From NCBI GenBank assembly GCA_043822305.1, contig JBDRBU010000106.1:1-18517 (forward strand): a stretch of 18,517 bases of DNA. Direction: 5' to 3'. A model generated the notes under the pieces. That model was not told the origin of the DNA. It saw only the letters and a program-made list of their open reading frames with translations, and did not search any database. How positions within the stretch are numbered: the stretch's first letter is position 1; every line of letters starts with the position of its first letter. Source of the DNA: Candidatus Firestoneibacteriota bacterium (GTDB lineage Bacteria; Oederibacteriota; D2-FULL-39-29; JBDRBU01). Both the position numbers and the translations under genes were made by a program. Positions 1,052 to 18,308 of this stretch are shown here, one piece after another.

Positions 1052-1273
1052 TTATTTATTTGTTTTTTTCCTGATCTTAACGAGAAGCACCTTTACATTT
1101 TTCTATCTCATCACTTACTTTCCTGAAAAACTCTATCGGCTGATTTTTAGGATCTGGTACATGCCACTCAATAAACTCCGCTGCCGGGTAAATAGGGCAA
1201 ACTCACCACAACCCATTCCAACCATATAATCAACCTGCTTGAATGGCAGGTCATTAGAACCTTTTGAAACATT
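1052..1273 (-). pseudogene. arsC: arsenate reductase (LMW-PTP type ArsC) C-terminal remnant with two frameshifts; N-terminal active-site loop missing
   Basis: Stitching three frames gives [22 protein letters not shown] / [34 protein letters not shown] / VKVLLVKIRKKTNK* (TAA 1054-1052). This matches the ArsC 'MGCGDxCP...W.ipDP...FR.vRDeI' pattern. Confidence 0.8.
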
Positions 1274-1791
1274 TAGAGTCGTTGTTTTAGAATAATCAGC
1301 ACCTACTCTCTTTCCCATAAAGAAACTTACTAAGAACATCACTACAAAGTATATAAGCAGTGGAACAGCTATTCGAAGGACATCCCCAGGTATCTTTATT
1401 ATCAGATTACCTTTAACACGATACAACGCGCCAAACCGATCAATATCAGCCCTGCCATATATTCCGGATAACATCTTAAAAATACTATTGCAAGAAGGAA
1501 CATCAAAACCGGACCTATCACCCAATTTTGCAGTAGAGAAAGACCTATCACCTTTTTATTTTTAAATACGTCCCCCATCTCCTCATATTTTACTTTGGCA
1601 AAAGGCGGATACATCATCAGGATTAGGCCTATCGCTATCGGAATATTTGTGGTCCCTACTGAAAAATTGTTTACGAATCTTTCAACACCAGAAATAAAGT
1701 AACCAGATAGGACACCTACAGCCATAGCAAGAAATATCCATAGGGTTAAATACCTGTCAAGAAAAGAAAGTTTCTTTGATATACCATCCAT
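1274..1791 (-). pseudogene. acr3: Acr3-family arsenite efflux transporter, internally deleted, frameshifted and 3'-truncated
   Basis: N-terminal [32 protein letters not shown] and GLARCI. At about 1416-1420 it jumps to a different frame encoding a later Acr3 segment, [27 protein letters not shown]...[10 protein letters not shown]. The SNNFELAIA/GPLVEVP region is absent. Confidence 0.88.
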
Positions 1792-5054: not shown

Positions 5055-5297
5055 TTATTTTAAATCCTTACTGCAATATCTACAAACTTTTGCTTCTTGC
5101 TTAATTATCTCAGCACAATAAGGACATTTTTTTAACTCTCCAGATTTCATTCTATTTTCATCAACTTTTTCCTGATTAGGTGGCAATAAAAAAGCAATCA
5201 AAACCCCAATCCAACCAAGCAGGAGTCCCAATACTTGACCATGGCCCTTTTGTCTACCTTTTCTTTTAAATATTTCTCCAGCCTTAAAAATTGGCAT
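5055..5297 (-). CDS. small membrane protein with C-terminal double zinc ribbon; probably N-terminally truncated
   Basis: TM segment VLGLLLGWIGVLIAFLL, then KKCPYCAEIIKQEAKVCRYC (two CxxC). The frame extends upstream as IVVLWI to a stop, with no obvious RBS. Confidence 0.7.
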   Translation of the reverse strand: MPIFKAGEIFKRKGRQKGHGQVLGLLLGWIGVLIAFLLPPNQEKVDENRMKSGELKKCPYCAEIIKQEAKVCRYCSKDLK

Positions 5298-5667
5298 TAT
5301 CCATAAAACAACAATTTATTATTTCATTTATAGTTTGTTGTGTTAAAGATTCTTTGTGTATTATTTGTTTTAATTCTAAAGAACGTTTTAGCAACTCAGC
5401 ACTATTAAATGCTTGAATATCAAAAAGTTTAATCCAGGTTTGTTTAGGAAATACTTTTTCTTTACCCCTTTCAATGACAAAGTAACCACTATTAGAATGG
5501 CAACTCAATGTCTGTGGCTTATTTTTAGATTGAGATGTAGTTAAAGCAAACAAAAATGGATCTTCTTTTTGAGGAGAATTAAGTAATATTAAAAACTTAT
5601 CTTGTGGTTGACCTCCATTTTTAAATGGAAAAGATTTATGCCAAATGACATCACCTTTTTGATACAT
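5284..5667 (-). CDS. putative toxin partner of the Panacea antitoxin, PemK/MazF-like
   Basis: N-terminal YQKGDVIW..FPFKNGG...KFLILL followed by LTTS resembles the PemK/MazF 'GDv..v.fPf.d....k.rp.lvl...plTs' pattern. Overlaps the 3' end of the antitoxin. ATG 5667 chosen over TTG 5670. Confidence 0.6.
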   Translation of the reverse strand: MYQKGDVIWHKSFPFKNGGQPQDKFLILLNSPQKEDPFLFALTTSQSKNKPQTLSCHSNSGYFVIERGKEKVFPKQTWIKLFDIQAFNSAELLKRSLELKQIIHKESLTQQTINEIINCCFMDNANF

Positions 5668-6232
5668 CAAAAAAAGTCCTAATTAATTTTCTATCTTCTT
5701 GTCTTTCTTGTATTTCTTCTATCGGTAATTTATTTTTAAAATATTCCTCTTTGAGTGATAAAATATAATCTATTTTTTGAAACATTCCCTTTGTTGTTTT
5801 TGTATAATCCCATGGACCTTCTGGGAAATGAGTTGCTTTCGTCATATCTTTGGCTCTCATATCTTTGTAAAAAAACGCTATTCGCTCCAATAGATCTAAT
5901 TCTCTTTGAGAAAAATATTTCTTATCAAACCTTACCTTATTCTTAATCTTTATTTCTCCGCCTAACCCACCATCTTCTTTGGGAATATAGACAATATACT
6001 TATCCAATTCTTTTTCACCATTCTTAATACATTTATAAACTTCTTCTGGAACTGGCCCATATTTATAAGTATAATATTCTTGACCAGTTACAGAAAACCT
6101 TGTTTGAACAAAATGTTCAAAATCTAAATAATAAAGTAATTTCATCAATTTTGTTAATCCACAATATTTAGTTTTTTTGACAAAATATATTATAGAATGA
6201 ATAATCTTTTCTTTTTGATGAGATATAATCAT
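5651..6232 (-). CDS. Panacea (DUF4065/SocA-like) antitoxin
   Basis: TKLMKLLYYLD, SVTGQEY...YGPVP and THFPEGPW are hallmark DUF4065 motifs; GAGGA RBS; first gene of a two-gene overlap. Confidence 0.88.
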   Translation of the reverse strand: MIISHQKEKIIHSIIYFVKKTKYCGLTKLMKLLYYLDFEHFVQTRFSVTGQEYYTYKYGPVPEEVYKCIKNGEKELDKYIVYIPKEDGGLGGEIKIKNKVRFDKKYFSQRELDLLERIAFFYKDMRAKDMTKATHFPEGPWDYTKTTKGMFQKIDYILSLKEEYFKNKLPIEEIQERQEDRKLIRTFFDVSKR

Positions 6233-6294: not shown

Positions 6295-7683
6295 TCAATA
6301 AGTACACACTTGATTTCTACCACTTTTTTTAGCGCGATACAATGCTTCATCGGCTCTTTTAATCAAATCTTGCGTTGTCTCAGCATCACGAGGAAAACCG
6401 GCTACACCAATACTAATAGTAATATTTATTTTCAGACTACCTATATCAAATAAGTGTTTTTCTGTAATAACTCGTATCCTGTCTGCATACATCTTTGCAC
6501 CTTCAAGTGATGTTTCTGTGGCTACAATAGCAAACTCTTCACCACCATACCTGGCTACTGAATCTGTGGCCCTACTTATCCCTCTAACTATTTCCACAAA
6601 CTCTACAAGTATCTTATCACCTGCTTGATGTCCGTATGTATCATTAACTTTCTTAAAATGATCTAAGTCTATCATCAGGAGGGAAATCCCTCCACCGTAT
6701 CTTTTTACTCTTTCAACCTCTTCTTCTAATCTAAATGTGAAATACCTTCTTAAATATGCCTTGGTTAAACCATCTGTAATAGATAATATATGTAAATAAG
6801 AACTTTCTAAGGCAACTGTGGCTATGTTTATTAAAGCAGACAAAAATTCTAAGTCACTATCCTGATAAGGTAAATATGCCTTTGAGGATCCTATGATTAA
6901 AATACCACTTAATCTTTCCTTAAACACTAAAGGCGCACAAATTTCACAGTTTAACTCTTCTAATTTTTTTATAGATTCTAGATCATTACAGTTTGTCTTA
7001 ATATTAGAAAATTTTTCCACTTTCTTGGATTTAATTAAATAATTACAAAAATTATCTTTAATATTAAAAGTAATATCTATCTTATTAGAATATCCTGTGG
7101 CTAAATTAAAATAAAGGGTTGTTTCTTCTTCATTAAGTAATAAAAATAAAATTGCCGAAGATGCATTAATATGTTCCTTGCTTGTATATAAAATAACACT
7201 TCCTATCCCTTCTATATCTAAACTAAAATTTAATTCTTTGGCCGAATTAAGTAATGTTGATATATCCCTTACTCTCCTTGTTAATTTAAACTGAGTTTCT
7301 TCCAAACCATCGACCATTTCATTAAAACTATCAGCAAGTTCTTTAATCTCATCATTACTTTTTAATAATACTCTATAATCTAATTTACCTTTGCCAAATA
7401 ATCCAACTGCTCTGGTTAATTCTTCCATAGGACGAACCATTAACTTAATTAAAATAAATGATATTAGAACAGTAATAAATGTTGCGACTATAGAGATTAA
7501 AAATATATCCTGGCTGATTTTTTTAACTGACTCTTCTGCTTCTTTTTTTGAAAAACCAATCTTTACTGCTTCTTCCAAGAAAACTTTAACATGATTAATG
7601 GTTAAAAAACTAACTAAGGCCATCATCATGGAAATTATAAGAAATACAAGAATAGATATTTTCGTTTTTATTGATATTTTCAT
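6295..7683 (-). CDS. membrane-anchored diguanylate cyclase (2 TM - HAMP - GAF - GGDEF)
   Basis: Two TM helices; HAMP (RPMEEL...DEIKELADSFNEM); GAF-like region; TDGLT, DLDHFKKVNDTYGHQAGD, RYGGEEF A-site; RATD I-site five residues upstream; ADEALYRAKKSGRN. Confidence 0.93.
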   Translation of the reverse strand: MKISIKTKISILVFLIISMMMALVSFLTINHVKVFLEEAVKIGFSKKEAEESVKKISQDIFLISIVATFITVLISFILIKLMVRPMEELTRAVGLFGKGKLDYRVLLKSNDEIKELADSFNEMVDGLEETQFKLTRRVRDISTLLNSAKELNFSLDIEGIGSVILYTSKEHINASSAILFLLLNEEETTLYFNLATGYSNKIDITFNIKDNFCNYLIKSKKVEKFSNIKTNCNDLESIKKLEELNCEICAPLVFKERLSGILIIGSSKAYLPYQDSDLEFLSALINIATVALESSYLHILSITDGLTKAYLRRYFTFRLEEEVERVKRYGGGISLLMIDLDHFKKVNDTYGHQAGDKILVEFVEIVRGISRATDSVARYGGEEFAIVATETSLEGAKMYADRIRVITEKHLFDIGSLKINITISIGVAGFPRDAETTQDLIKRADEALYRAKKSGRNQVCTY

Positions 7684-8254: not shown

Positions 8255-8283
8255 ATTATATTAAATATATAGAATTAAATCAA
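8255..8283 (-). promoter_or_regulatory. sigma70 promoter for tRNA-His
   Basis: TTGATT (8283-8278, overlapping the upstream TGA stop), 17-nt spacer, TATAAT (8260-8255), 10 nt before the tRNA. Confidence 0.65.
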
Positions 8284-9272
8284 CTAATTTTACTCAATCT
8301 ACAGGTAAGAAATATTGAGATTATAAATACAAAAATATATAAAATCCCGGAAAAAAATTCATTTAATCTTATTAAAATATAACCTGTTATAGCCAAAAAT
8401 ATAGAAATGGAATATATTATAAACATAACCTGCTTTCTATTTAATCTTAGTTTTAACAATCTAAGAGGAAAATGATCCGAACTTCCAAAATACACAGGTT
8501 TACCCTGCTTCCACCTCACCCACATAACAAACAATGTATCAAATATGGGTACACCCAGAATAATAATTGGTGTCATAACAGCAAGATTATTGGTAAAACT
8601 ATAACTTTCTGTTATAGCGAGTGTGCCAAGCATAAAACCAATGAATAAACTTCCCGCATCTCCCATAAATATTCTTGCCGGTGGAAAATTATAAACCAAA
8701 AATCCAAGTATAGAACCGGCTAACGATAAAGAGGCTAAAGGACTAAATAATTTCCCGCCTTCCATACCAATTATAAAAAAAGTAATCAAGGCAATAAAAG
8801 CAACACCACCAGCAAGTCCATCCATTATATCTACAAAATTAAAAGCATTAGTAACTCCAACTATCCATAAAACAGTAATAATATTATTTGAAAACTCGTT
8901 TCCTAAAAAATTTATTTTTATATCACAAACAATTAAAATTACTGCTGATAAAATCTGGATAAAAAATTTAAACGGTATATTTAATTTCTTAATATCGTCA
9001 ACCAACCCTAATAAAAAAATAAGACTTGCCCCAATAATAATTCCAACAAGTCCTTTAATTGTGTGTGCCGTGGCCATTTCGTACACAAACAAAGCAATAA
9101 AAAAAGACAAAAATATAGCCACCCCACCCAAATAAGGAATTGGTTTCTTGTGCCTTTTTAGATTATCATCCGGCTTGTCTAAGATATTAAATCTTTTAGC
9201 TATTTTTATGCAAATTGGCACAGAAACCAAACTTAATAAAAACGAACTTGTAAAAATTAACAAATATTTCAT
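8280..9272 (-). CDS. WecA/TagO-like undecaprenyl-phosphate HexNAc-1-phosphate transferase (MraY/glycosyltransferase family 4)
   Basis: LDKP...RHKKPIPYLGG, GLVDD, NAFNFVDIMDGL, YNFPPARIFMGDAGS, PIFDT; polytopic membrane protein. Confidence 0.9.
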   Translation of the reverse strand: MKYLLIFTSSFLLSLVSVPICIKIAKRFNILDKPDDNLKRHKKPIPYLGGVAIFLSFFIALFVYEMATAHTIKGLVGIIIGASLIFLLGLVDDIKKLNIPFKFFIQILSAVILIVCDIKINFLGNEFSNNIITVLWIVGVTNAFNFVDIMDGLAGGVAFIALITFFIIGMEGGKLFSPLASLSLAGSILGFLVYNFPPARIFMGDAGSLFIGFMLGTLAITESYSFTNNLAVMTPIIILGVPIFDTLFVMWVRWKQGKPVYFGSSDHFPLRLLKLRLNRKQVMFIIYSISIFLAITGYILIRLNEFFSGILYIFVFIISIFLTCRLSKIS

Positions 9273-10231
9273 ATATTATCCTTCATTACTCTTTTACTGA
9301 ATATTATTTTTCTTTTTTGTAATATCTTCTTCCATAATTTAAATATATTAATTATACTAAGTCCAACTTTAATATCAAATATAATTATATATATCCAAAA
9401 TAAAAATTCGTAAATTAAGAAGTAATGTAAATGTGATAAGAATTCTTTTAAGGAACAATTTTTCAATAATACCAAATACCTGTTTAACAATATATGCTTA
9501 CGGATAAAAAATGGCTTTTTTGTAAATAAAAACCTCTTTGAAAAAAATCTGGTTTCATTTTTTGCATCACTACCTGATCTATAATGAAAAGCAACTGCTT
9601 TTGGTTCAAAATAAGCTTTCCAACCATATAAATTCGCACGCCAACCCAAATCGAAATCTTCATAATACATAAAAAAATCCTCATCAAAGTATTCATCATT
9701 TATCTTTATATCTTCAAGCATTTCTTTTTTATATAAACTTACCGCACCACATGATGAAAAAACATAACCCTCTTTAAATATATGCTTATCTAACTTCCCA
9801 TATCCCCTTTCTATTGGCTTTAAAAACCTGCTTATAAACTGCCCGGTAGAATCAATAACATTTTTATCAGTTAACCGTAATATTTTACCCGTGATAAGAC
9901 CAACATCGTTTTTTAAACTATTTAATTTATTTATTATTTTTTCTATAAAATCTTCTGCAAGAACTACATCCGAATTAAGAATTAATATATAATCGCCTGA
10001 AGAATTTCTAAGACCAAAATTAGCCGATTTGCAAAACCCTAAATTTTCCGTAATAAAATATATTTTTAAATCCGAATATTTCTTTTTTAAAAACTCCACA
10101 GAGCAATCTGTTGAAAAATTATCAACAACAATAATTTCGCAAACATTATATGTTTGATTTTTTACCGATTCTATACATTTTTCCAAAAATTTTTCACAAT
10201 TATAATTTACGATAACACATGAAATTTTCAT
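9269..10231 (-). CDS. family 2 glycosyltransferase
   Basis: ISCVIVNYN, VVDNFSTD, NLGF, LILNSD, FDEDFFMYYEDFDLGWR; overlaps both neighbours. Confidence 0.92.
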   Translation of the reverse strand: MKISCVIVNYNCEKFLEKCIESVKNQTYNVCEIIVVDNFSTDCSVEFLKKKYSDLKIYFITENLGFCKSANFGLRNSSGDYILILNSDVVLAEDFIEKIINKLNSLKNDVGLITGKILRLTDKNVIDSTGQFISRFLKPIERGYGKLDKHIFKEGYVFSSCGAVSLYKKEMLEDIKINDEYFDEDFFMYYEDFDLGWRANLYGWKAYFEPKAVAFHYRSGSDAKNETRFFSKRFLFTKKPFFIRKHILLNRYLVLLKNCSLKEFLSHLHYFLIYEFLFWIYIIIFDIKVGLSIINIFKLWKKILQKRKIIFSKRVMKDNI

Positions 10232-13200
10232 TATTTCGCTTTTATCTCTATTAAAAATTTTTCATAATTAATATTTGCTATGTTTTTATACTTATTATAA
10301 ATGTCCATGGCTTTATCATGTTCTAATTTTGAAGATTTAACATTACCTGTTCTCTTATAAACCTCGCTTAACAAAAGATGCGCCCTTGAAAAATTTGGCT
10401 CTAAAATTATTGAATCTTTAAGAATTTTTTCAGCAAGATTGTAACTTTTAACTAAATAATAAACATATCCGAGTTCATATCTTAATATAGCATCATTAGG
10501 GTATAAATTTATAGCTTTATTATACTCTTCAACAGTTTCCTGATATAACTTTGCATCATAATATAATAACGCAAGGTGTTTGTGATAAAATGCATTCATT
10601 TTATTTTTTAAAACAGCGGACTTAAAATACGCTTCTGAGATATTAAAAGTTTTTAAATCTTTAGTTAACTTATAATAATTTTGATAATGTTTACCTAAGA
10701 CATCGTAATATTTCCCCGACAAAGGATTTAAAAAAATAGCAGTTTTCATGCTTTTTTCAGCATCTTCCAAATTATGTTTTTTTGTATTATAAAAATAATT
10801 CATATAAAAATGTTCGGCTAGACTATTTTGAATAACGACTATAATTAAAATTAGAACAAGCAGTAATATATACATACGAAGTCTCTTCACCTTGTTCAAT
10901 TTTACAAAACAAGCATTGGTCTGGTTTAACGGCTTTGAAAAAATCACGGCTATCAACATAATAAAAATAATATTTATGGGCAGAAAATGTAGATTAAAAT
11001 CAACAGTAGCATGAATAAGTATGGATATTATAGCCAGAACACTACCCAGAATCAATTTAAGTTCAGATTCATTATTAGTATTTTTTATAAGTATATAACT
11101 TTGTTTAAGTATAATAATAATAAAGATAAACATTAACAGCATCCCGGCCATGCCCATTTCGGAAATTACCTGTAAATATTCATTGTGGGCAAACTCAGCC
11201 AATCTTGTAAATCTTCCGATATTTCCTTCTATCGGGAAAGTATACTTTGGAAAAACATCTGCAAATGTACCCAGACCATATCCCAGAAATGGTTTATCTA
11301 AAAACATCTTTAACGCACTCTTATATATGCCTACCCTGGCATATGCGGCTACATCATCTCCACCGATATTAACCATTCTACTCATGAGAGGATTTGGAAC
11401 TATTAAAAGCAACAAAATTATTATAAAAATTATAAGAGATATGCTAAGTCTAAATCTTTTTTTAATAACTTTCTTACTGGCTAAGATATTTAAAGATATT
11501 AAGAAAAGAATAATAACAAAAACAAAAGATAGCGCCGCTCCTCTTGACTGAGTTAGAACCAAACATATTATAGAACTAATTAAAGATGAACAATTTAAAA
11601 TATTTTTAAAAAGTCCTTTTGAGTTTATTAAGGACATAGAAACTAAGGAGATGTTTATAACTAAAAATCCACCTAATAAATTTGGATTTGGAAATAAACT
11701 TTCAGCCCTTAAATCACCCAGAAAGAAATACTGATAAATACCTATGACAGAAACTGCAAAAGAAACAAAAGTAATAGTTTCTATAACAAACATTATATTT
11801 TTCAAATTTCGCAAATAATTAACAGTTACATAAAAAAGAAAAATACAAGAAATTACTTTAAATATTTCATATAATGTTTTTTCTGTATTTACAGAAACCA
11901 ATAAAGATAAGAATGATAGTAAAATTAAACCAGTTCCAACATAGTCAATTGGTGTCTTAATTAATCTTTCTTTTTTGAAAATCGTTATTAAAAACAATAA
12001 TCCTGTCACAATAAATATAACAGTAAAATTTAAAAGATGAAATTTTGCCAGGAGCACCGATATGACCATGATGCAGACAATCCCTATTTCAAACACATAT
12101 CGTTTCAAAATATTTAACACACCAGAAAACATTGATTGAAGACTCGTGAATGAATGAATAGAAACCTTAAAATTAGTGACATAAAAAGATGATAAGATGC
12201 CCAGATTAGCAAACCACATCAAAGAATTCTGCCACATATTTGAATCTAGATCAACAAGATTATGGACTAAAAAAGATAGGACCGAAGAAAAAAAGCCTAT
12301 AAATAAAGCTTTATTTTCTTTAGAATCTTTCTTGCTTAAAAATAATAAACTTTCTTTTATTATGACTAATACCAAAAAAACCAAAGAAATAAATCCAACA
12401 ACTCCTAATTCACAAAAAACCTGAATATAGAAATTATGTGGATATTTAAGCGGCAAAGAAGTTAAATCTTGAAAAGAGTTTACTCCACTTCCTATTAATG
12501 GTGAAATTTTTATAATATTTATACAATCTTTCCAGTAATTTAGTCTTGATAAAATAGAATTATTAGGGTCACTAAAGTTAAATAAATCGGGTCTTGATAG
12601 TAATATTATGAACAAAGTTAAACCAAAAACAATTATACCTGATAAGACTACTTTCCCCTTGTCCTTAAAGATTAAATAAAAATAAATAAATAAAGATATA
12701 AATAATGTTAAAAAACTACCTACAGATTTTGTAAGATATAAAACAAAAATTAAACCAGTCATAAGTAACAAGACAAATATTTTTTTCAAACCTGATTTTA
12801 AAATCCATAATAAACTTAAACTAATAGGTATAATCATGACAATATAACCTGCAAAAACATTTGGATATAGAAAAGTAGCAAAAACTCGTTTTAAAGAAAC
12901 ATTCTTAACAATCTCTGCTGTAATCACTTTATCATAAATTATCCCGTGTTCAAAAATATATCTTAATATATCATCAAAACCTATATAGTATTGATGGATG
13001 GCAAACAATATCACCAAGGCCGAACTTAACAACACTGTCCAAATGAATTTTATCTTCCATTTTAAAGAATTAAAATTATTTATTATTAAGCTAAACAACA
13101 AAATATAAAATGCTAAATGTAAATTATTAAGATTAAAACTACTGTACTTTGAAAAAATATTAGATACAAAAGTAATTAAAAGAAGTGAAAATAATGGTAT

Positions 13201-13380
13201 GTTAATTTTAGTGTTTGTTAAAACTGATTCTTTTTTAAAAACATTCTGAAAAAACCACAATAAAAATATAAATATTATAGATACATAATAAAAATTTAAA
13301 AAAAAAGGATAAACTTCTGCAGAGAAAAGAGGAGTAAAAAACAATAATAATAAAACTAACCAATTAGTAACATTTTTCAC
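10231..13380 (-). CDS. tandem double O-antigen ligase/O-oligosaccharyltransferase-like (2x Wzy_C) membrane protein with C-terminal TPR repeats
   Basis: Module 1: RVFATFLYPN, LTKSVG, SRLNYW..PLIGSG, PHNFYIQVFCELG, HNLVD. Module 2: RAESLFPNPN, LTQSRG, ARVGIY..PFLGYG, AHNEYLQVISEMG, HATVDF. Followed by TPRs (YNKAINLYPNDA, SIILEPNFSRAH). Confidence 0.85.
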   Translation of the reverse strand: MKNVTNWLVLLLLFFTPLFSAEVYPFFLNFYYVSIIFIFLLWFFQNVFKKESVLTNTKINIPLFSLLLITFVSNIFSKYSSFNLNNLHLAFYILLFSLIINNFNSLKWKIKFIWTVLLSSALVILFAIHQYYIGFDDILRYIFEHGIIYDKVITAEIVKNVSLKRVFATFLYPNVFAGYIVMIIPISLSLLWILKSGLKKIFVLLLMTGLIFVLYLTKSVGSFLTLFISLFIYFYLIFKDKGKVVLSGIIVFGLTLFIILLSRPDLFNFSDPNNSILSRLNYWKDCINIIKISPLIGSGVNSFQDLTSLPLKYPHNFYIQVFCELGVVGFISLVFLVLVIIKESLLFLSKKDSKENKALFIGFFSSVLSFLVHNLVDLDSNMWQNSLMWFANLGILSSFYVTNFKVSIHSFTSLQSMFSGVLNILKRYVFEIGIVCIMVISVLLAKFHLLNFTVIFIVTGLLFLITIFKKERLIKTPIDYVGTGLILLSFLSLLVSVNTEKTLYEIFKVISCIFLFYVTVNYLRNLKNIMFVIETITFVSFAVSVIGIYQYFFLGDLRAESLFPNPNLLGGFLVINISLVSMSLINSKGLFKNILNCSSLISSIICLVLTQSRGAALSFVFVIILFLISLNILASKKVIKKRFRLSISLIIFIIILLLLIVPNPLMSRMVNIGGDDVAAYARVGIYKSALKMFLDKPFLGYGLGTFADVFPKYTFPIEGNIGRFTRLAEFAHNEYLQVISEMGMAGMLLMFIFIIIILKQSYILIKNTNNESELKLILGSVLAIISILIHATVDFNLHFLPINIIFIMLIAVIFSKPLNQTNACFVKLNKVKRLRMYILLLVLILIIVVIQNSLAEHFYMNYFYNTKKHNLEDAEKSMKTAIFLNPLSGKYYDVLGKHYQNYYKLTKDLKTFNISEAYFKSAVLKNKMNAFYHKHLALLYYDAKLYQETVEEYNKAINLYPNDAILRYELGYVYYLVKSYNLAEKILKDSIILEPNFSRAHLLLSEVYKRTGNVKSSKLEHDKAMDIYNKYKNIANINYEKFLIEIKAK

Positions 13381-13386
13381 TAAGAC

Positions 13387-13833
13387 TTACCTTTTTTTTA
13401 AGATACATATAGCAGCCTGTAAACCCAAAATGTAACTTTCCTTACCAAATCCATAAATTCCACCCACGGCAACCTGCGATATAAATGAATGAGATCTAAA
13501 CTCTTCTCTTTTGTATATATTTGAAAGGTGAACTTCAATAGTAGGAATCTTAACAGATGATATTGCTTCTCTAATGGCTAAACTCGTATGTGTATAGGCC
13601 GCAGGGTTAATAACTAAAACCTGAGCCCATTTTTCTCCATGTTTTTGAATAATATTGATTATTTCACCTTCTGAATTTGCCTGAAAAATTTTAACATTTA
13701 CTTTTTCCTTTTTTGCAAAATTTCTAATTTCTTTATCAATCTCTTTTAAGGTGAACCTTCCGTAAATTTCAGGTTCTCTTTTACCTAATAAATTTAAATT
13801 TGGGCCATGAATAACCAATATATTACCTCTCAT
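13387..13833 (-). CDS. aroQ: type II 3-dehydroquinate dehydratase
   Basis: IHGPNLNLLGKREPEIYG, INPAAYTHTS, IEVHLSNIYKREEFRSHS; GGAGG RBS supports ATG at 13833. Confidence 0.96.
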   Translation of the reverse strand: MRGNILVIHGPNLNLLGKREPEIYGRFTLKEIDKEIRNFAKKEKVNVKIFQANSEGEIINIIQKHGEKWAQVLVINPAAYTHTSLAIREAISSVKIPTIEVHLSNIYKREEFRSHSFISQVAVGGIYGFGKESYILGLQAAICILKKR

Positions 13834-13851
13834 TTTTACCTCCAATTTATT

Positions 13852-14622
13852 TTACTTCTCAATCCCTAATAATTTCGCTGCATTTAGATAAAAATATTTA
13901 TGTATATCTTCTTTTGAATAACCAAGTTTTTTTAATTTTTTCTTCCACCATATTTCATCTTTACCATAATTTTCTCCCATATTGTCAGTGCCATACATAA
14001 TTTGATCCAGATAAAGACTTTTTAAGCCAGGTAGTTCGTTTTTAAAAATCCATTTTCCCCATCCAGGACAGGTGTCTGCAAAAGCATTCTTTAACCTCGA
14101 TGTTAAAACAATTGTTTCCAAATATGTTGATGCTCCACCAAAATGTGCAAATATAAAATTAATATCCGGATGCCTTTTGGCTGGAATTTCAAAATGAAAT
14201 GGTGAAGCAGTTAATAAAGAAGTTTTTCTTGAAAACTTTATTGGTGCAATCCAACCACAATGAGAAAGACATAGTAATTTTCTTTTTTCAACTTCTTCCC
14301 AAACAGGTTCAAACTTATCATCATTAGGGTCATATCCAAAATTTGGAAAAAGTTTAATGGATTTAAAACCAAAATCTGAATATTTTTTTATTAAATCAAT
14401 ACATTTTTTTACTGGCATTCTAAAATCAACATAAACACTTCCATATAATTTCTTGGGATGTTTTTTTACTGCTTTTAAGATATCTAAATTCGTATCTACT
14501 TTTGTTATAGAACCATGAACAAGCGCTGCTACAACATCATGCTTATTCATAATTTCCACATATTTGTCCATATATGGGTCATCATTAACTGGATGAATAT
14601 GAATATCTATTTTTTTCATCAT
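13852..14622 (-). CDS. amidohydrolase-superfamily (Amidohydro_2-like) metal-dependent TIM-barrel enzyme, substrate unknown
   Basis: IDIHIH metal motif, IKLFP, SHCG, FAHFGG, MYGTD. Confidence 0.85.
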   Translation of the reverse strand: MMKKIDIHIHPVNDDPYMDKYVEIMNKHDVVAALVHGSITKVDTNLDILKAVKKHPKKLYGSVYVDFRMPVKKCIDLIKKYSDFGFKSIKLFPNFGYDPNDDKFEPVWEEVEKRKLLCLSHCGWIAPIKFSRKTSLLTASPFHFEIPAKRHPDINFIFAHFGGASTYLETIVLTSRLKNAFADTCPGWGKWIFKNELPGLKSLYLDQIMYGTDNMGENYGKDEIWWKKKLKKLGYSKEDIHKYFYLNAAKLLGIEK

Positions 14623-14633
14623 ACTTTTCTAAT

Positions 14634-15461
14634 TTAAACCTTTATGGCCGCAGGATATGAACCTAATATTTTTAAAAACAAACACTCTTTTTCTAACTCA
14701 TTTAAAGCCTTTGCAACTTTTTTATCCTCTAGATGACCTACAAAATCTATAAAGAAATAATAATCCGATGCTTTTCTTATTGAAGGACGAGATTCGATAT
14801 TAGATAAGTTTATTCCATGCTTTTTAAAAGGGATAAGCATTGTATCTAAAACACCCGTCTTATCCCTTATTGAAAATAGTATTGAAGTTTTGTCATCTCC
14901 CGTTTTTGGAACATACTTTTTACCAATAATTAAAAATCTTGTGTAATTATTAAAAATATCCTCTGTTGATAAAATTTCCGCACAAATACGCAAATCCGAA
15001 TCTATAAACATATCTAAGGCATGAGTAATGACACCCTCCGTAGAACTCTCTATAGGCATAACACCATAATCACATCTATTACTCTCTACCTCTGCAAAAA
15101 TATCACTTATACTTTTTACAGCAATATGTTTTACTGAGGAACCAAAATGCTGTAATGAGGCTAAATAAGTAAAAGTAGATTCCTGGTTCAAGTAGGCAAC
15201 CCTTAAAGACGCCTGCAGATCTCGTGAAGCAGAAATTATTTCTTTAAAAATAGATTTAACAGATTTATTCGGAAAAGGGCCTTTGTTGTTTTTTATCAAT
15301 AAATTATATATTTTTACTTCTCGATCAGGGACATAATAATCCTTGCTTTTACATTTTTTAAAATGTTTAACATTTAAGACAAGTTTTGCTCTTTCATTTA
15401 ACAAATTTAATATTCGATGGTCTATCTTATCTATTTGTTTTCTAATATTTTTTAAACTCAT
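14634..15461 (-). CDS. pheA: PheA-like chorismate mutase - internally deleted prephenate dehydratase - ACT protein
   Basis: AroQ-class chorismate mutase N-terminus (RKQIDKID..LLNERA..K...PDRE..SRDLQ), PDT elements (VAYL, PIESSTEG, NYTRF), DDKTS linker, ACT domain IESRP...FFIDFVGH...LGSYP. Only 275 aa. Confidence 0.88.
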   Translation of the reverse strand: MSLKNIRKQIDKIDHRILNLLNERAKLVLNVKHFKKCKSKDYYVPDREVKIYNLLIKNNKGPFPNKSVKSIFKEIISASRDLQASLRVAYLNQESTFTYLASLQHFGSSVKHIAVKSISDIFAEVESNRCDYGVMPIESSTEGVITHALDMFIDSDLRICAEILSTEDIFNNYTRFLIIGKKYVPKTGDDKTSILFSIRDKTGVLDTMLIPFKKHGINLSNIESRPSIRKASDYYFFIDFVGHLEDKKVAKALNELEKECLFLKILGSYPAAIKV

Positions 15462-15476
15462 TTAATACCACACTTT

Positions 15477-16274
15477 TCATTTAACTAAATCAGTTAATGT
15501 GCCCGTTTCAGTGAAAAACGAATCCGCCATTCTTTTATCAACTGCTCTTAATCTACGACATAAGGTTGCAATAAAAACCCATAGTAATTTTACGGCTAAT
15601 GAGTCATTTGAACTTAAAAGTTGTCTAAAATCCTCTCTCTTCATTACAAACATTTCTACATTATCAAATGCTACTGCACTTGCACATCTTTCAGACTCAT
15701 CAAGCAAAGCCATTTCACCAAAAAATTCACCTTCCCTGATTAAGACTAAAACTTCTTCTTTATTAGCTATAGATTTTTTTACAATCTTTACTCTACCAGA
15801 AATTACAATATAAAATGCATTACCTTCCATTCCATCCTCAAATATCTTTTGACCCTCACGATAAGATACTTCTTTACTTATTTTCCTGATATACCAACTT
15901 TCCTCATCTAAAAGGTCTTTAAACGGCTTTATTTTTCTTAGAAATATAACAGATTTAATATATTTGCTTATTTTCTCCTTCACCTCAACATTCGTATCAT
16001 CAAAGGCAATGGCAGAAAAAAATTTATCTTCTTCTTCCTTGGACCTTGTAACTTTACCCTCTATATTTTCAAATCTGCAGTCTTCTTGAAATTCAAATGT
16101 TAATGAAACTAAAGTACCTACCGGTAAAAAAGTATTTATAATCATTGATAAACCACTTCCACCAATATTAATCGTATTACCAACAAAAAATCTACCACCT
16201 AAATCTTTAACCATAACACCTACGGGAAGGGTTATATTAATTCTTTGATATTTTCTCCTTTCCTGATCATACAT
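15477..16274 (-). CDS. PilZ + cyclic nucleotide-binding domain protein (paralog 2)
   Basis: ERRKYQR (RxxxR), NIGGSG; cNMP domain IFEDG..G.AFYIVISGRV...GEFFGEMALLDESERCASA. AGGAGG RBS supports ATG 16274 rather than 16340. Confidence 0.87.
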   Translation of the reverse strand: MYDQERRKYQRINITLPVGVMVKDLGGRFFVGNTINIGGSGLSMIINTFLPVGTLVSLTFEFQEDCRFENIEGKVTRSKEEEDKFFSAIAFDDTNVEVKEKISKYIKSVIFLRKIKPFKDLLDEESWYIRKISKEVSYREGQKIFEDGMEGNAFYIVISGRVKIVKKSIANKEEVLVLIREGEFFGEMALLDESERCASAVAFDNVEMFVMKREDFRQLLSSNDSLAVKLLWVFIATLCRRLRAVDKRMADSFFTETGTLTDLVK

Positions 16275-16293
16275 CTTTCCTCCTAAACCATAC

Positions 16294-17097
16294 TTACTTT
16301 TTGTAATCTGACAATGATGCTTCACTAAAAAGTAAATCAACCATTTCCTGATTCATCGTTTTTAATCTTTTAGATAAAGTTCTAATAAATCCCAGGAGTA
16401 TTTTTATTACCAATTTATGATTACTTATCATCATTTTATTAAAATCATCAGCCGTTATTACAAAAAGAGAAGAATCAGTATGAGCCATAGCCCCGGCTGT
16501 TCTTTTACCCTCATCAAACAATGCCATTTCTCCAAAAAACTCCCCTTCTCTTATTAAGGCTAAAACTTCCTCATTGCTTTCTTCAATTTGCGATTTCTTT
16601 GTTATTTTAATTTTTCCAGAAATTACCGCATAAAAAGCATCCCCTTCAGAACCTTCTTCAAATATTACTTGATCTTCCTTAAAATTCACTTTTCTCCCTA
16701 TACTTTTCAAATAAAGTGCTTCATCATCGGCAAGACAAGAAAAGAGTTTTATTCTTTTTATAAAATAAATAGAGTTTGCTAAATTACTTATTTTTTCAAT
16801 ATTCTCCTGAGTCATATTTAAAAATTCAAGACCAAAAACGAACTTATCCTCAGCATCATTAACTCTCAAAATTTTCGTAGAAACATCTTCAATAACAATG
16901 TCATCGTGAATTTTAAATGAGAGAAGTAAATTTTTCCCTAAGGGTAAAAAAGAATCAAGTGAAATGGCAACACCTCCGGCACTAATATCTACAATATTGC
17001 CAACATATACTTTGTTTGTATTCTTTATGGTAACATTCATAGGAATGTTTAATCTTAATCTCTTATGCTTTCTTCTATTTTTCCATTCTTCTGACAT
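16294..17097 (-). CDS. PilZ + cyclic nucleotide-binding domain protein (paralog 1)
   Basis: NRRKHKR (RxxxR), DISAGG (DxSxxG), FGLEF; cNMP domain IFEEG..GDAFYAVISGKI...GEFFGEMALFDEGKRTAGA; GAGGAG RBS. Confidence 0.9.
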   Translation of the reverse strand: MSEEWKNRRKHKRLRLNIPMNVTIKNTNKVYVGNIVDISAGGVAISLDSFLPLGKNLLLSFKIHDDIVIEDVSTKILRVNDAEDKFVFGLEFLNMTQENIEKISNLANSIYFIKRIKLFSCLADDEALYLKSIGRKVNFKEDQVIFEEGSEGDAFYAVISGKIKITKKSQIEESNEEVLALIREGEFFGEMALFDEGKRTAGAMAHTDSSLFVITADDFNKMMISNHKLVIKILLGFIRTLSKRLKTMNQEMVDLLFSEASLSDYKK

Positions 17098-17639
17098 GTT
17101 TTTTCATCTCCTCTTAAATAGTTTAAAAGTTCTTCTACTCTGGGTAAATCCACCAAACTCTTTAAACCAAAATATCGTAAAAATTCTTGTGTTGTCCCAT
17201 AAAGTAACGGTCGGCCAATACACTCTTTTCTTCCCTTAATAGCAATTAAATTTCTCTCTAAAAGAGTCTCTAAAACACCTTCCGTACTAACTCCCCTAAT
17301 ACCTTCAATCTCAAGCCTGGTCACAGGTTGTTTATATGATACTATGGCTAATGTTTCTAATGCTGCTTTCGACAATCTGGTTACAATTCTTGCTTTATAT
17401 AATCTTTTTATCCAAACTGCAAACTGTGGTTTTGTAACAATTTGAAATCCTTCTGCTATTTCCACAATACTAAAAGGTCTACCTAAAGTCTCATATTCAA
17501 TTTGTAGCTCTGCCAGAAGTTTTCTAGCAACTTCCTCATCAAATTCTTCCAATACTTCGTTTATCCTCTTTACTGAAAGTGGTTTACCTGAGACAAAAAG
17601 CAAACATTCTATTATATCCTTTTTAAAAGATAAATCCAT
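17055..17639 (-). CDS. scpB: SMC-Scp complex subunit ScpB
   Basis: IECLLFVSGKPL, LSKAALETLAIVSYKQPVTRLEIEGIRGV, GRPLLYGTTQEFLRYFGL. Confidence 0.96.
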   Translation of the reverse strand: MDLSFKKDIIECLLFVSGKPLSVKRINEVLEEFDEEVARKLLAELQIEYETLGRPFSIVEIAEGFQIVTKPQFAVWIKRLYKARIVTRLSKAALETLAIVSYKQPVTRLEIEGIRGVSTEGVLETLLERNLIAIKGRKECIGRPLLYGTTQEFLRYFGLKSLVDLPRVEELLNYLRGDEKTCQKNGKIEESIRD

Positions 17640-17642
17640 ATA

Positions 17643-18308
17643 TTACTTCCTAAGTATATAAATTTCATGGGTTGTCATACTTTGTTTACAAATAATCAAT
17701 CCTAATTTTATCAACTCTAATATGGCTAAAAATGTTGTTATCACATGCTCCTTGGACAATTGTTTTTTTAAAAAATCTATAAATTGAATTTTTTCCTGCA
17801 AATCTAAAACATCTAAAATTTCGTTAATTTTCTGTTTAACTGTTACGCCTTCTCTGGCCATATTTACAACTTCATCCTTGGGCAGATACGCTAAAACACT
17901 TTTAAAAGCAAAGAGTAAATCATACAAAGTTGCTTCTTTAAATTCTTTCTCAACAAATTCAGAGAAGTCTTCCTCTTTATAAAAAAAGTCTCTTTGTTTT
18001 ATCTCCTTCGTTTCTAATTCCTTAGACACTTCTTTAAATTTCCTGTACTCTTGAAGTAATTTCTCCATATCTACATTTTCCTCAGTAGATTTAGTATCTT
18101 CAACATTAGGTAATAAAGATTCTGATTTTAAATATATCAAGTTTGCCATATATAATATAAATTCACTACCTTCATCTATATTGGTGAGCTCAAATCCTTT
18201 AACTATATCTAAAACTGTTACTTGACTCACATCAATCTCTTCTTCTTTAATTAAATCAAGAAGTATTTCAAAAGGTCCTTCATATTTTTTTGAAACTACA
18301 TTATACAT
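17643..18308 (-). CDS. scpA: segregation and condensation protein A (kleisin)
   Basis: YEGPFEILLDLI, EFILYMANLIYLKSESLLP, TFLAILELIK; directly upstream of scpB. Confidence 0.92.
   Translation of the reverse strand: MYNVVSKKYEGPFEILLDLIKEEEIDVSQVTVLDIVKGFELTNIDEGSEFILYMANLIYLKSESLLPNVEDTKSTEENVDMEKLLQEYRKFKEVSKELETKEIKQRDFFYKEEDFSEFVEKEFKEATLYDLLFAFKSVLAYLPKDEVVNMAREGVTVKQKINEILDVLDLQEKIQFIDFLKKQLSKEHVITTFLAILELIKLGLIICKQSMTTHEIYILRK

Follow-up and report, generated by a model that had tools for sequence, protein, structure and literature searches.

Tandem PilZ and cyclic nucleotide-binding proteins without an output domain behind scpAB in a Candidatus Firestoneibacteriota bacterium: candidate dual second-messenger adaptors

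The PZC1–PZC2 tandem and its domain architecture

The stretch of DNA analysed here, referred to below as the window, consists of 18,517 nucleotides (nt) of contig JBDRBU010000106.1 from Candidatus Firestoneibacteriota bacterium (assembly GCA_043822305.1). Directly behind scpA and scpB, its minus strand carries two adjacent paralogous genes, here called PZC1 (16294..17097, encoding 267 amino acids, aa) and PZC2 (15477..16274, 265 aa from its ATG). Each encodes a PilZ domain, a cyclic nucleotide monophosphate (cNMP)-binding domain and a long C-terminal helix (C-helix), as determined from the open reading frame (ORF), Pfam matches and an AlphaFold2 (AF2) model for PZC1, and from the ORF, Pfam matches and alignment for PZC2. 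Their products align over 264 columns with 41% identity (E=7e-73), and both contain the block EEVL.LIREGEFFGEMAL. A first-pass annotation, made from the sequence alone, had described a pair of paralogues of about 265 aa at this position, with this layout and with neither a helix-turn-helix (HTH) nor an enzyme domain; the ORFs, Pfam, the AF2 models and Foldseek all agree with that description. Both genes are real and have the look of expressed ones, and their products would be small cytoplasmic adaptors composed of two ligand-sensing modules; the named relatives of PZC1 come from Candidatus Firestonebacteria metagenome-assembled genomes (MAGs).

Both domains score above the Pfam gathering cut-offs in both proteins (22.5 bits for PilZ, PF07238; 27.5 bits for cNMP_binding, PF00027). 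In PZC1, the PilZ domain (aa 7–106, 16780..17079) reaches 61.6 bits and the cNMP-binding beta-barrel (aa 137–225, 16423..16689), also recognised by Foldseek, 79.7 bits; the corresponding values for PZC2 are 39.1 bits (PilZ, 15954..16262, also modelled with AF2) and 83.6 bits (beta-barrel, 15606..15869). The earlier assignment of the N-terminal domains to PilZ is thus upheld by profile scores and, as described below, by fold matches. No further Pfam family, including any HTH or enzyme domain, matched either protein at E<=0.01, and no NCBIfam model scored above its cut-off; the NCBIfam CRP model, whose cut-off is 266 bits, scored 52.6 and 49.4 bits and covered the sensor part alone. The C-terminal HTH of CRP/FNR proteins was found in neither PZC1 nor PZC2. 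A PilZN or xPilZ domain ahead of PilZ, as in YcgR-like proteins, was not found either, and there is no space for one because PilZ begins at residue 5–7.

The AF2 model of PZC1 (predicted local distance difference test score, pLDDT, 84; predicted TM-score, pTM, 0.71; 24-sequence family alignment) consists of six strands and a helix (residues 18–115, the helix at 97–115), a cNMP-type barrel and a 30-residue helix at residues 227–256 (16330..16419). The last of these, delimited with DSSP and by alignment with CRP and GlxR, is a CRP-like putative dimer helix. The C-terminal helix of PilZ is continuous with the N-terminal helices of the cNMP domain. The C-helix is followed by a conserved tail, MNQEMVDLLFSEA, in which Q250, E251, V253, D254, L255, L256 and F257 are invariant in the alignment of the PZC1 clade, and the modelled chain terminates about 10 residues past the C-helix. 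The best Foldseek matches of the C-terminal half are Mycobacterium tuberculosis CRP and Corynebacterium glutamicum GlxR, over about 150 columns with a root-mean-square deviation of 2.2–2.9. The PilZ half of PZC2, modelled alone (pLDDT 81.6), has 31 matches in the PDB at E<=0.001; those listed are PilZ proteins, and they include BcsA, MotI, YcgR, VCA0042, PP4397, Alg44, MrkH and MapZ (TMq 0.6–0.78). Both PilZ models have six strands and one helix, the fold given for PilZ in the part of a PilZ review available to us (10.1101/814665). None of the best 60 of 199 PDB sequence matches, all of them cNMP-domain proteins, joins a PilZ and a cNMP domain, and none of the eight longer proteins retrieved in a search for fused forms carries PilZ. 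PZC1 and PZC2 are output-less PilZ, cNMP-binding and C-helix proteins.

The start of PZC2 can be read in two ways. A longer frame with a TTG start reaches position 16340 and is unsupported, since the ERRK motif lies only a few residues from the start of all 17 PZC2-type sequences. The ATG at 16274 is the better start for PZC2, because these starts lie near ERRK and a ribosome-binding site read from the sequence, AGGAGG (16279..16284), precedes the ATG by 4 nt.

Ligand motifs and paralogue divergence

Motif conservation was counted in 25 PZC1-clade and 17 PZC2-type sequences. The canonical PilZ motifs are defined as RxxxR and [D/N]hSxxG in the accessible text of the same review (10.1101/814665). 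In PZC1 the first reads R9-K-H-K-R13 (17059..17073), with R13 invariant and R9 present in at least 90% of sequences, and the second D37-I-S-A-G-G42 (16972..16989), with S39 and G42 invariant (25/25). The former aligns with RRNAFR of PP4397, RRQYVR of MotI and KRNSHR of the cellulose synthase PilZ domain, and the latter with DISATG, NISAGG and DLSMGG of solved PilZ proteins. With a profile of the PilZ halves, RRKxxR and NxSxGG likewise fall, at weak E-values of 0.04–0.2, on the two motifs of PP4397, MotI and the cellulose synthase PilZ domain, all three of which are solved complexes with cyclic di-GMP (c-di-GMP) in which the aligned motifs contact the ligand. The last Arg of RxxxR is invariant in the 24-sequence family alignment.

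In the phosphate-binding cassette, as known from PKA and CRP, a Gly-Glu pair is followed by an Arg with an Ala two residues further on. The cassettes of PZC1 (F188 to A201, 16495..16536; FGEMALFDEGKRTA) and PZC2 (F185 to A198, 15681..15722; FGEMALLDESERCA) both have this form, ending in R199-T-A201 and R196-C-A198, respectively. G189, E190, R199 and A201 are invariant in PZC1 (25/25), as are F185, G186, E187, R196 and A198 in PZC2 (17/17), so that the Glu and the Arg are invariant in both clades. PZC1 is, as judged from its motifs, the fully motif-competent paralogue, and looks competent for both ligands.

PZC2 retains RxxxR as R7-K-Y-Q-R11 (16242..16256), with R7 and R11 each in at least 90% of PZC2-type sequences, and has a deviant second PilZ motif, N36-I-G-G-S-G41 (16152..16169), with Gly where Ser is canonical; N36 is found in at least 90% of the sequences and G41 is invariant. 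The motifs quoted in the first-pass annotation (RKHKR, DISAGG and R-T-A for PZC1, RKYQR, NIGGSG and R-C-A for PZC2, and the EEVL.LIREGEFFGEMAL block) are all present, and its claim that they had diverged holds for one position and not quite for another. In the alignments, the consistent difference between the paralogues lies in PilZ motif 2, where all 25 PZC1 sequences have Ser and 11/17 PZC2-type sequences, including that of the window, have Gly; Ser is kept in P0023, P0271, P0272 and P0273, the database entries most closely related to PZC2 of the window. In PKG and cyclic nucleotide-gated channels, the preference between cyclic GMP (cGMP) and cyclic AMP (cAMP) is tuned by the residue that follows the cassette Arg. 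In the present proteins this residue is mostly Thr in PZC1 and mostly Ser in PZC2, with Cys in the window and P0023 only, and the R-T versus R-C contrast is thus partly lineage noise. By its motifs, PZC2 is probably a weaker c-di-GMP binder or a non-binder that has kept cNMP binding. A further departure is seen in genome family f2, which has second and third copies of the gene: in all five of these, the cassette Arg has been replaced by Ser with a one-residue deletion, and the D/N of motif 2 by Ser.

These changes bear on a reading in which each protein has one live input, PZC2 and the extra f2 copies being pseudo-receptors in one or both domains, and the system no true two-messenger integrator. 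The Ser-to-Gly change in 11 of the 17 PZC2-type sequences, the lower PilZ score of PZC2 (39 versus 62 bits) and the f2 copies that lack both the cassette Arg and the motif 2 D/N all point in that direction, whereas PZC2 still conserves RxxxR, N36 and G41, and the alternation of Ser and Gly among close relatives suggests that the position is a tolerant one. At least PZC1 looks dual, because its canonical motifs are kept across 25 sequences. We regard a one-input system as a real possibility, at rather less than even odds.

Conservation, copy number and the operon slot

In a search of 99 genomes of the phylum, full-length matches were confined to the window genome and 10 of the 12 others that belong to the same order or class; matches elsewhere covered the cNMP half alone, in ORFs of about 155–210 aa. 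Seven of the 11 gene-carrying genomes have at least two adjacent intact copies. Four have two, PZC1 followed by PZC2 (the window genome, G000, and G011, G012 and G014), two have three (G007, G009), and G006 has two intact copies and a frameshifted third. Single copies are present in G015 and G016 (PZC1 only) and in G017 (PZC2-like only), and the contig of G010 stops after the first copy. The third copy of G006 (L024, 6800–7560) is PZC2-like, with at least two frameshifts or stops, between intact neighbours. G008 belongs to the same genus as the three-copy genomes; its scpA-scpB-pheA run has a gap of 89 nt and no copy, nor was a copy found elsewhere in this genome, which is 87% complete; in G013 (80% complete), neither a PilZ–cNMP gene nor scpB was detected. 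Beyond the genomes, metagenome contig L143 (48% GC) has the order trpS/tyrS-scpA-scpB-one PZC2-like copy-pheA, and on contig L144 (44% GC) a PZC1-type gene, whose product is 60% identical to PZC1, overlaps a PZC2-type gene by 4 nt. Scans of genome and metagenome contigs with generic cNMP patterns gave at least two and at least three full-length loci, respectively, among the 80 retained in each, and reveal little about the true range of the family. The tandem pair is conserved and is not a local accident, as the adjacent intact copies in 7/11 genomes and the pair on the metagenome contig show.

Longer relatives, of 390 aa, have about 125 extra N-terminal residues without a Pfam match, followed by PilZ and cNMP domains; those at loci L031 and L145, in an Elusimicrobia MAG and a metagenome contig, lie after accA, a PFK-family gene and an inositol monophosphatase gene. 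In a maximum-likelihood tree of 36 sequences, for which four of the longer relatives served as the root, the PZC1 clade (support 100/100) holds the first copies of families f1, f2 and f3, with the second and third copies of f2 nested within f2. The PZC2 clade has a support of 84/94; the only copy in family f4 (G017) falls beside P0129, the protein of contig L143, and other distant representatives. The Nei-Gojobori ratio of nonsynonymous to synonymous divergence (dN/dS) is 0.037–0.093, with first, second and third copies alike, for the seven of eight orthologue pairs that could be computed; dS was saturated in the eighth and exceeded 1.5 in several others. All tested copies are under purifying selection. 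A tentative order of events, given the rooting and the long branches, would be that a single ancestral PZC2-like gene entered the slot behind scpB in a scpA-scpB-X-pheA string in the ancestor of the class, that a duplication in this order gave rise to PZC1, and that PZC2 was later lost (G015, G016) or decayed (G006), while PZC1 may have been duplicated again in f2.

Copy number is also the evidence that bears on whether PZC1 and PZC2 form an obligate heterodimer through their C-helices, each subunit with differently tuned ligand sites. The two genes are adjacent and in the same order in G000, G011, G012, G014 and contig L144, and PZC1- and PZC2-type proteins are tabulated on longest contigs of equal size (3568, 8891, 13410 and 67071 nt), which suggests, and does not prove, that they share contigs. 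In the extra copies of f2, neither the cassette Arg nor the motif 2 D/N survives (5/5 cases), and yet dN/dS is 0.037–0.085; with a ligand-blind copy beside a competent one, the simplest explanation is therefore that both work together. Against this, PZC1 stands alone in G015 and G016, a PZC2-like gene stands alone in G017 and L143, the PZC2-type copy of G006 is frameshifted, and G008 has neither. The heterodimer as the obligate form, an elaboration of what the first-pass annotation had proposed, is unlikely in view of the genomes that have a single copy or lack the gene.

The tandem forms part of a tight operon. scpA (17643..18308; PF02616, 62.3 bits) and scpB (17055..17639; PF04079, 186 bits) lie immediately upstream on the same strand; the 3' end of scpB overlaps the start of PZC1, with 43 nt shared from its ATG, 19 nt separate the PZC1 stop from the PZC2 ATG, and 15 nt lie between the PZC2 stop and the start of pheA (14634..15461; CM_2, truncated PDT and ACT domains). 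The genes are joined by overlaps or gaps of 15–19 nt, and no terminator-like site was found on the minus strand between 9000 and 18517. Further downstream, also on the minus strand, are genes for an Amidohydro_2 protein (13852..14622), AroQ (13387..13845), a Wzy_C/TPR protein of 1049 aa (10231..13380) and glycosyltransferases GT2 (9269..10231) and GT4 (8280..9272). The order scpA-scpB-[PilZ–cNMP]-pheA-(amidohydrolase)-aroQ-Wzy_C/TPR is conserved in the nine loci fetched from relatives, with the scpA ORF unrecovered in two of them and the G017 locus showing scpA to pheA only.

The position behind scpAB, also remarked upon in the first-pass annotation, is correct as geography, scpB and scpA lying directly upstream, and argues only weakly for a functional tie. 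Of the 99 genomes of the phylum, 90 gave a ScpB match, and in three other families (G027, G029, G036) the place between scpB and pheA is taken by an RluB-like pseudouridine synthase gene, assigned by reading the sequence rather than with a hidden Markov model (HMM). The phylum-wide scpA-scpB-X-pheA string is older than the PilZ–cNMP gene because rluB fills X in these families, and the adjacency is most simply an insertion into an old operon at the slot of rluB. A role for the proteins as modulators of SMC–ScpAB condensin, binding ScpB or ScpA and coupling c-di-GMP and cAMP to chromosome compaction or segregation, would account for several features: the start of the first copy invariably falls within scpB or right at its end (overlaps of 43 nt in the window and of about 8 or 70 nt in relatives), the adjacency spans lineages of 30% to 48% GC (10 genomes and contig L143), and ScpB is short in the gene-carrying lineages (181–205 aa) versus 224–439 aa in 17/18 loci examined from other families, the exception being the ScpB of 196 aa in G017. 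The older string and G008, which keeps scpA-scpB-pheA with no gene between, leave such a link possible and weakly supported, and the longer relatives sit at accA-pfk-inositol monophosphatase, with no scpB there. To our knowledge, which on this point draws on no literature search, no PilZ or cNMP-binding protein has been described as regulating condensin, and we hold this role to be very improbable. A bolder version is no more probable: the proteins would be coincidence detectors that report c-di-GMP and cAMP to SMC–ScpAB through ScpB, with the ligand-blind paralogues as pseudo-receptor tuning subunits. If it were true, chromosome compaction or segregation would become an output of second messengers, with the first copy translationally coupled to ScpB. 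As a separate observation on ScpB, the nine long forms inspected (among loci L124–L142) have an acidic, low-complexity C-terminal tail rich in Asp and Glu, of 50–250 aa.

The other candidate target suggested by gene order is the downstream polysaccharide module (Wzy_C/TPR, GT2 and GT4), many PilZ receptors being controllers of exopolysaccharide machines. The Wzy_C/TPR gene follows aroQ in 7/9 fetched loci, with GT2 next in G015; the best fold matches include the PilZ domains of BcsA and Alg44; and a gene for a HAMP-GAF-GGDEF diguanylate cyclase of 462 aa (6295..7683, minus strand) lies 2.5 kb further down, beyond the GT2, GT4 and GYD-domain genes. Between the tandem and this module, however, lie pheA, the amidohydrolase gene and aroQ, three metabolic genes without relation to either, and the BcsA and Alg44 matches reflect only the fold common to PilZ domains. 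ScpAB and the Wzy_C/TPR–glycosyltransferase module are each proposed as targets from gene order alone, at long odds of about one in ten, and the polysaccharide module, for its part, is an improbable target.

Some other features of the window may be recorded here. The pheA gene encodes 275 aa, versus about 355 aa in relatives, with CM_2 and ACT intact; the in-frame gap corresponds to residues 165–247 of the G014 orthologue, in the middle of the prephenate dehydratase (PDT) domain, and could be a real deletion or an assembly artefact. A gene resembling antitoxins with a SocA/Panacea domain (5651–6232, minus strand) overlaps an ORF of 128 aa without a Pfam match (5284–5670), and this pair (5284–6232) may be a toxin–antitoxin system. 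An SBF/Acr3-like arsenite carrier gene (1133–1791, minus strand) appears to be split, an ORF of 129 aa matching family positions 1–76 of 191 and an overlapping ORF of 130 aa having no match; it is flanked by genes for ArsR (1797–2120) and an ArsP permease (123–1037).

A candidate two-messenger adaptor and its relation to known systems

The window genome (2.15 Mb, 96.8% complete) contains 10 PilZ matches, 9 GGDEF matches including that of the HAMP-GAF-GGDEF protein in the window, 2 class III cyclase domains and 4 cNMP-binding domains. The best solved relatives of its CHASE2-cyclase of 600 aa are adenylate cyclases (CyaB, 7e-47). The cell plausibly makes both c-di-GMP and cAMP, given the GGDEF proteins and this adenylate-cyclase-like enzyme. 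The four cNMP-binding domains are those of PZC1, PZC2 and two stand-alone proteins of 157 and 169 aa, and none is joined to a CRP HTH; the HTH_Crp_2 family (PF13545) had no match in the window genome, with a query that matched in 14/14 control genomes. The stand-alone proteins are encoded at L112 2260–2733 (contig C6) and L113 2183–2692 (contig C78); one gene lies directly upstream of that for a T2SSE/PilT-type ATPase, and the other overlaps an AI-2E transporter gene beside atpA. Output-less receptors may be the main route of cNMP signalling here, because no CRP-type regulator was found in the genome.

We propose, with a probability of about 0.6, that PZC1 and PZC2 are dimeric, output-less dual second-messenger adaptors that act by protein contact. 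The proposal follows from the presence of two sensors without an output domain, the continuity of the PilZ helix with the cNMP helices and the CRP-like C-helix. The C-helix would dimerise the proteins as in CRP, c-di-GMP would bind to the RxxxR tail and beta-barrel of PilZ, and cAMP to the Glu/Arg cassette of the second domain. cAMP is the favoured ligand, with cGMP as the alternative, because the nearest solved relatives of the cyclase of this genome are adenylate cyclases. The N-terminal helices of cNMP domains move upon ligand binding. Either ligand could thus shift the relative position of the two domains and thereby alter binding to a partner protein. Homodimers would be the ancestral state, and PZC1–PZC2 heterodimers possible and not required; mixed pairing would be an elaboration rather than a requirement, since some genomes have a single copy and another lacks the gene. 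Either mixed dimers or rivalry for one partner would fit the retention of partly ligand-blind paralogues beside a competent one.

Several points weigh against this proposal. For dimerisation, the sole argument is likeness to CRP-family structures. The profile of the PilZ half matches solved PilZ chains weakly (E 0.04–0.5), so that the PilZ assignment is carried by the fold match and the Pfam score. Dual sensing may hold for PZC1 only, because PZC2, in the window as in most PZC2-type sequences, is without the canonical Ser of motif 2. The function is dispensable, G008 being without the genes. RNA data for the organism were sought among sequencing runs and none were found, one DNA run containing a small share of its words. 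CRP/FNR-type domains can take ligands other than cNMPs, and PADLOC reported weak similarity to the cNMP-type domains of Pycsar effectors (26–34 bits) and also to cyclase models. On the latter ground, a pyrimidine cyclic nucleotide may conceivably be the ligand. A defence function of the Pycsar type was considered and rejected: there are no such neighbours, and the locus is a conserved housekeeping operon.

The signalling networks of c-di-GMP and cAMP are mostly treated as separate circuits, and the known junctions between them are enzymes or transcription factors. If the proposal is correct, a protein made of PilZ and cNMP domains only would be a direct receptor for two messengers that works by protein contact. 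Genomes with 0, 1, 2 or 3 copies, some with sensor motifs that are degraded and yet under selection, would then provide a natural series for the dissection of such adaptors.

The architecture extends beyond this phylum. A profile search of 1.84 billion representative proteins gave 14 single-stretch full-length matches among the best 150, the rest being proteins with several cNMP domains, and in each of the 13 full-length representatives that were scanned, PilZ precedes cNMP_binding. Among the 30 nearest ESM Atlas clusters, 13 have been automatically named 'Cyclic nucleotide-binding/PilZ domain-containing protein'; the phyla most often represented in them are Planctomycetota, Myxococcota and Acidobacteriota, and variants also carry PilZN, Zn-ribbon or FHA domains. 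These database clusters have the same two Pfam domains as PZC1 and PZC2, in 248–283 aa, and a name only, with no function. PZC1 and PZC2 form a Firestonebacteria-type branch, as tandem paralogues in a scpAB–pheA operon, whereas the others lie in different contexts. No description of a two-domain PilZ and cNMP-binding protein was found in the literature searched, although the figures or supplements of a survey of PilZ proteins in Myxococcus xanthus (PMC8316039) could list one. The architecture does not feature in the part of the PilZ review available to us (10.1101/814665), and in the text seen of another article a PilZ protein is employed merely as a cytoplasmic label (PMC6606864). As far as could be found, PilZ–cNMP double sensors are catalogued in databases and occur in several phyla, and have been the subject of no study.

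The closest likeness on the PilZ side is to MapZ (PA4608) of Pseudomonas aeruginosa, which also has a canonical PilZ fold with RxxxR and, as in PZC1, [D/N]hSxxG, has no output domain, and acts by protein contact; its chains 5xly and 5y4r are among the fold matches of the PZC2 PilZ domain. When loaded with c-di-GMP, MapZ binds CheR1. The C-terminal helix of its PilZ domain is a partner-binding surface, according to the accessible text of the review (10.1101/814665). In PZC1 and PZC2, unlike MapZ, this helix runs on into a second sensor domain. On the cNMP side, CRP and GlxR share the beta-barrel, the Glu/Arg cassette and the long C-helix, with 25–26% identity; PZC1 and PZC2 differ from them in having an N-terminal PilZ domain and no HTH after the C-helix. 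Examples of proteins in which the two signals meet are Bd1971 and Clp. Bd1971 of Bdellovibrio bacteriovorus combines a cNMP-binding domain with an EAL phosphodiesterase and so joins cAMP sensing to c-di-GMP signalling (PMC6717892). As would be the case for PZC1 and PZC2, both signals are handled on one polypeptide, and the family profile detects its cNMP domain at E 5e-18; Bd1971 degrades c-di-GMP, however, whereas PZC1 and PZC2, with no enzyme domain, would only bind it. Clp of Xanthomonas, a CRP-like protein with a domain of the cNMP type, serves as a c-di-GMP receptor (PMC6637768). In Clp, c-di-GMP acts at the CRP scaffold of a DNA-binding protein, whereas in PZC1 and PZC2, which have no HTH, it would be sensed by a separate PilZ domain.

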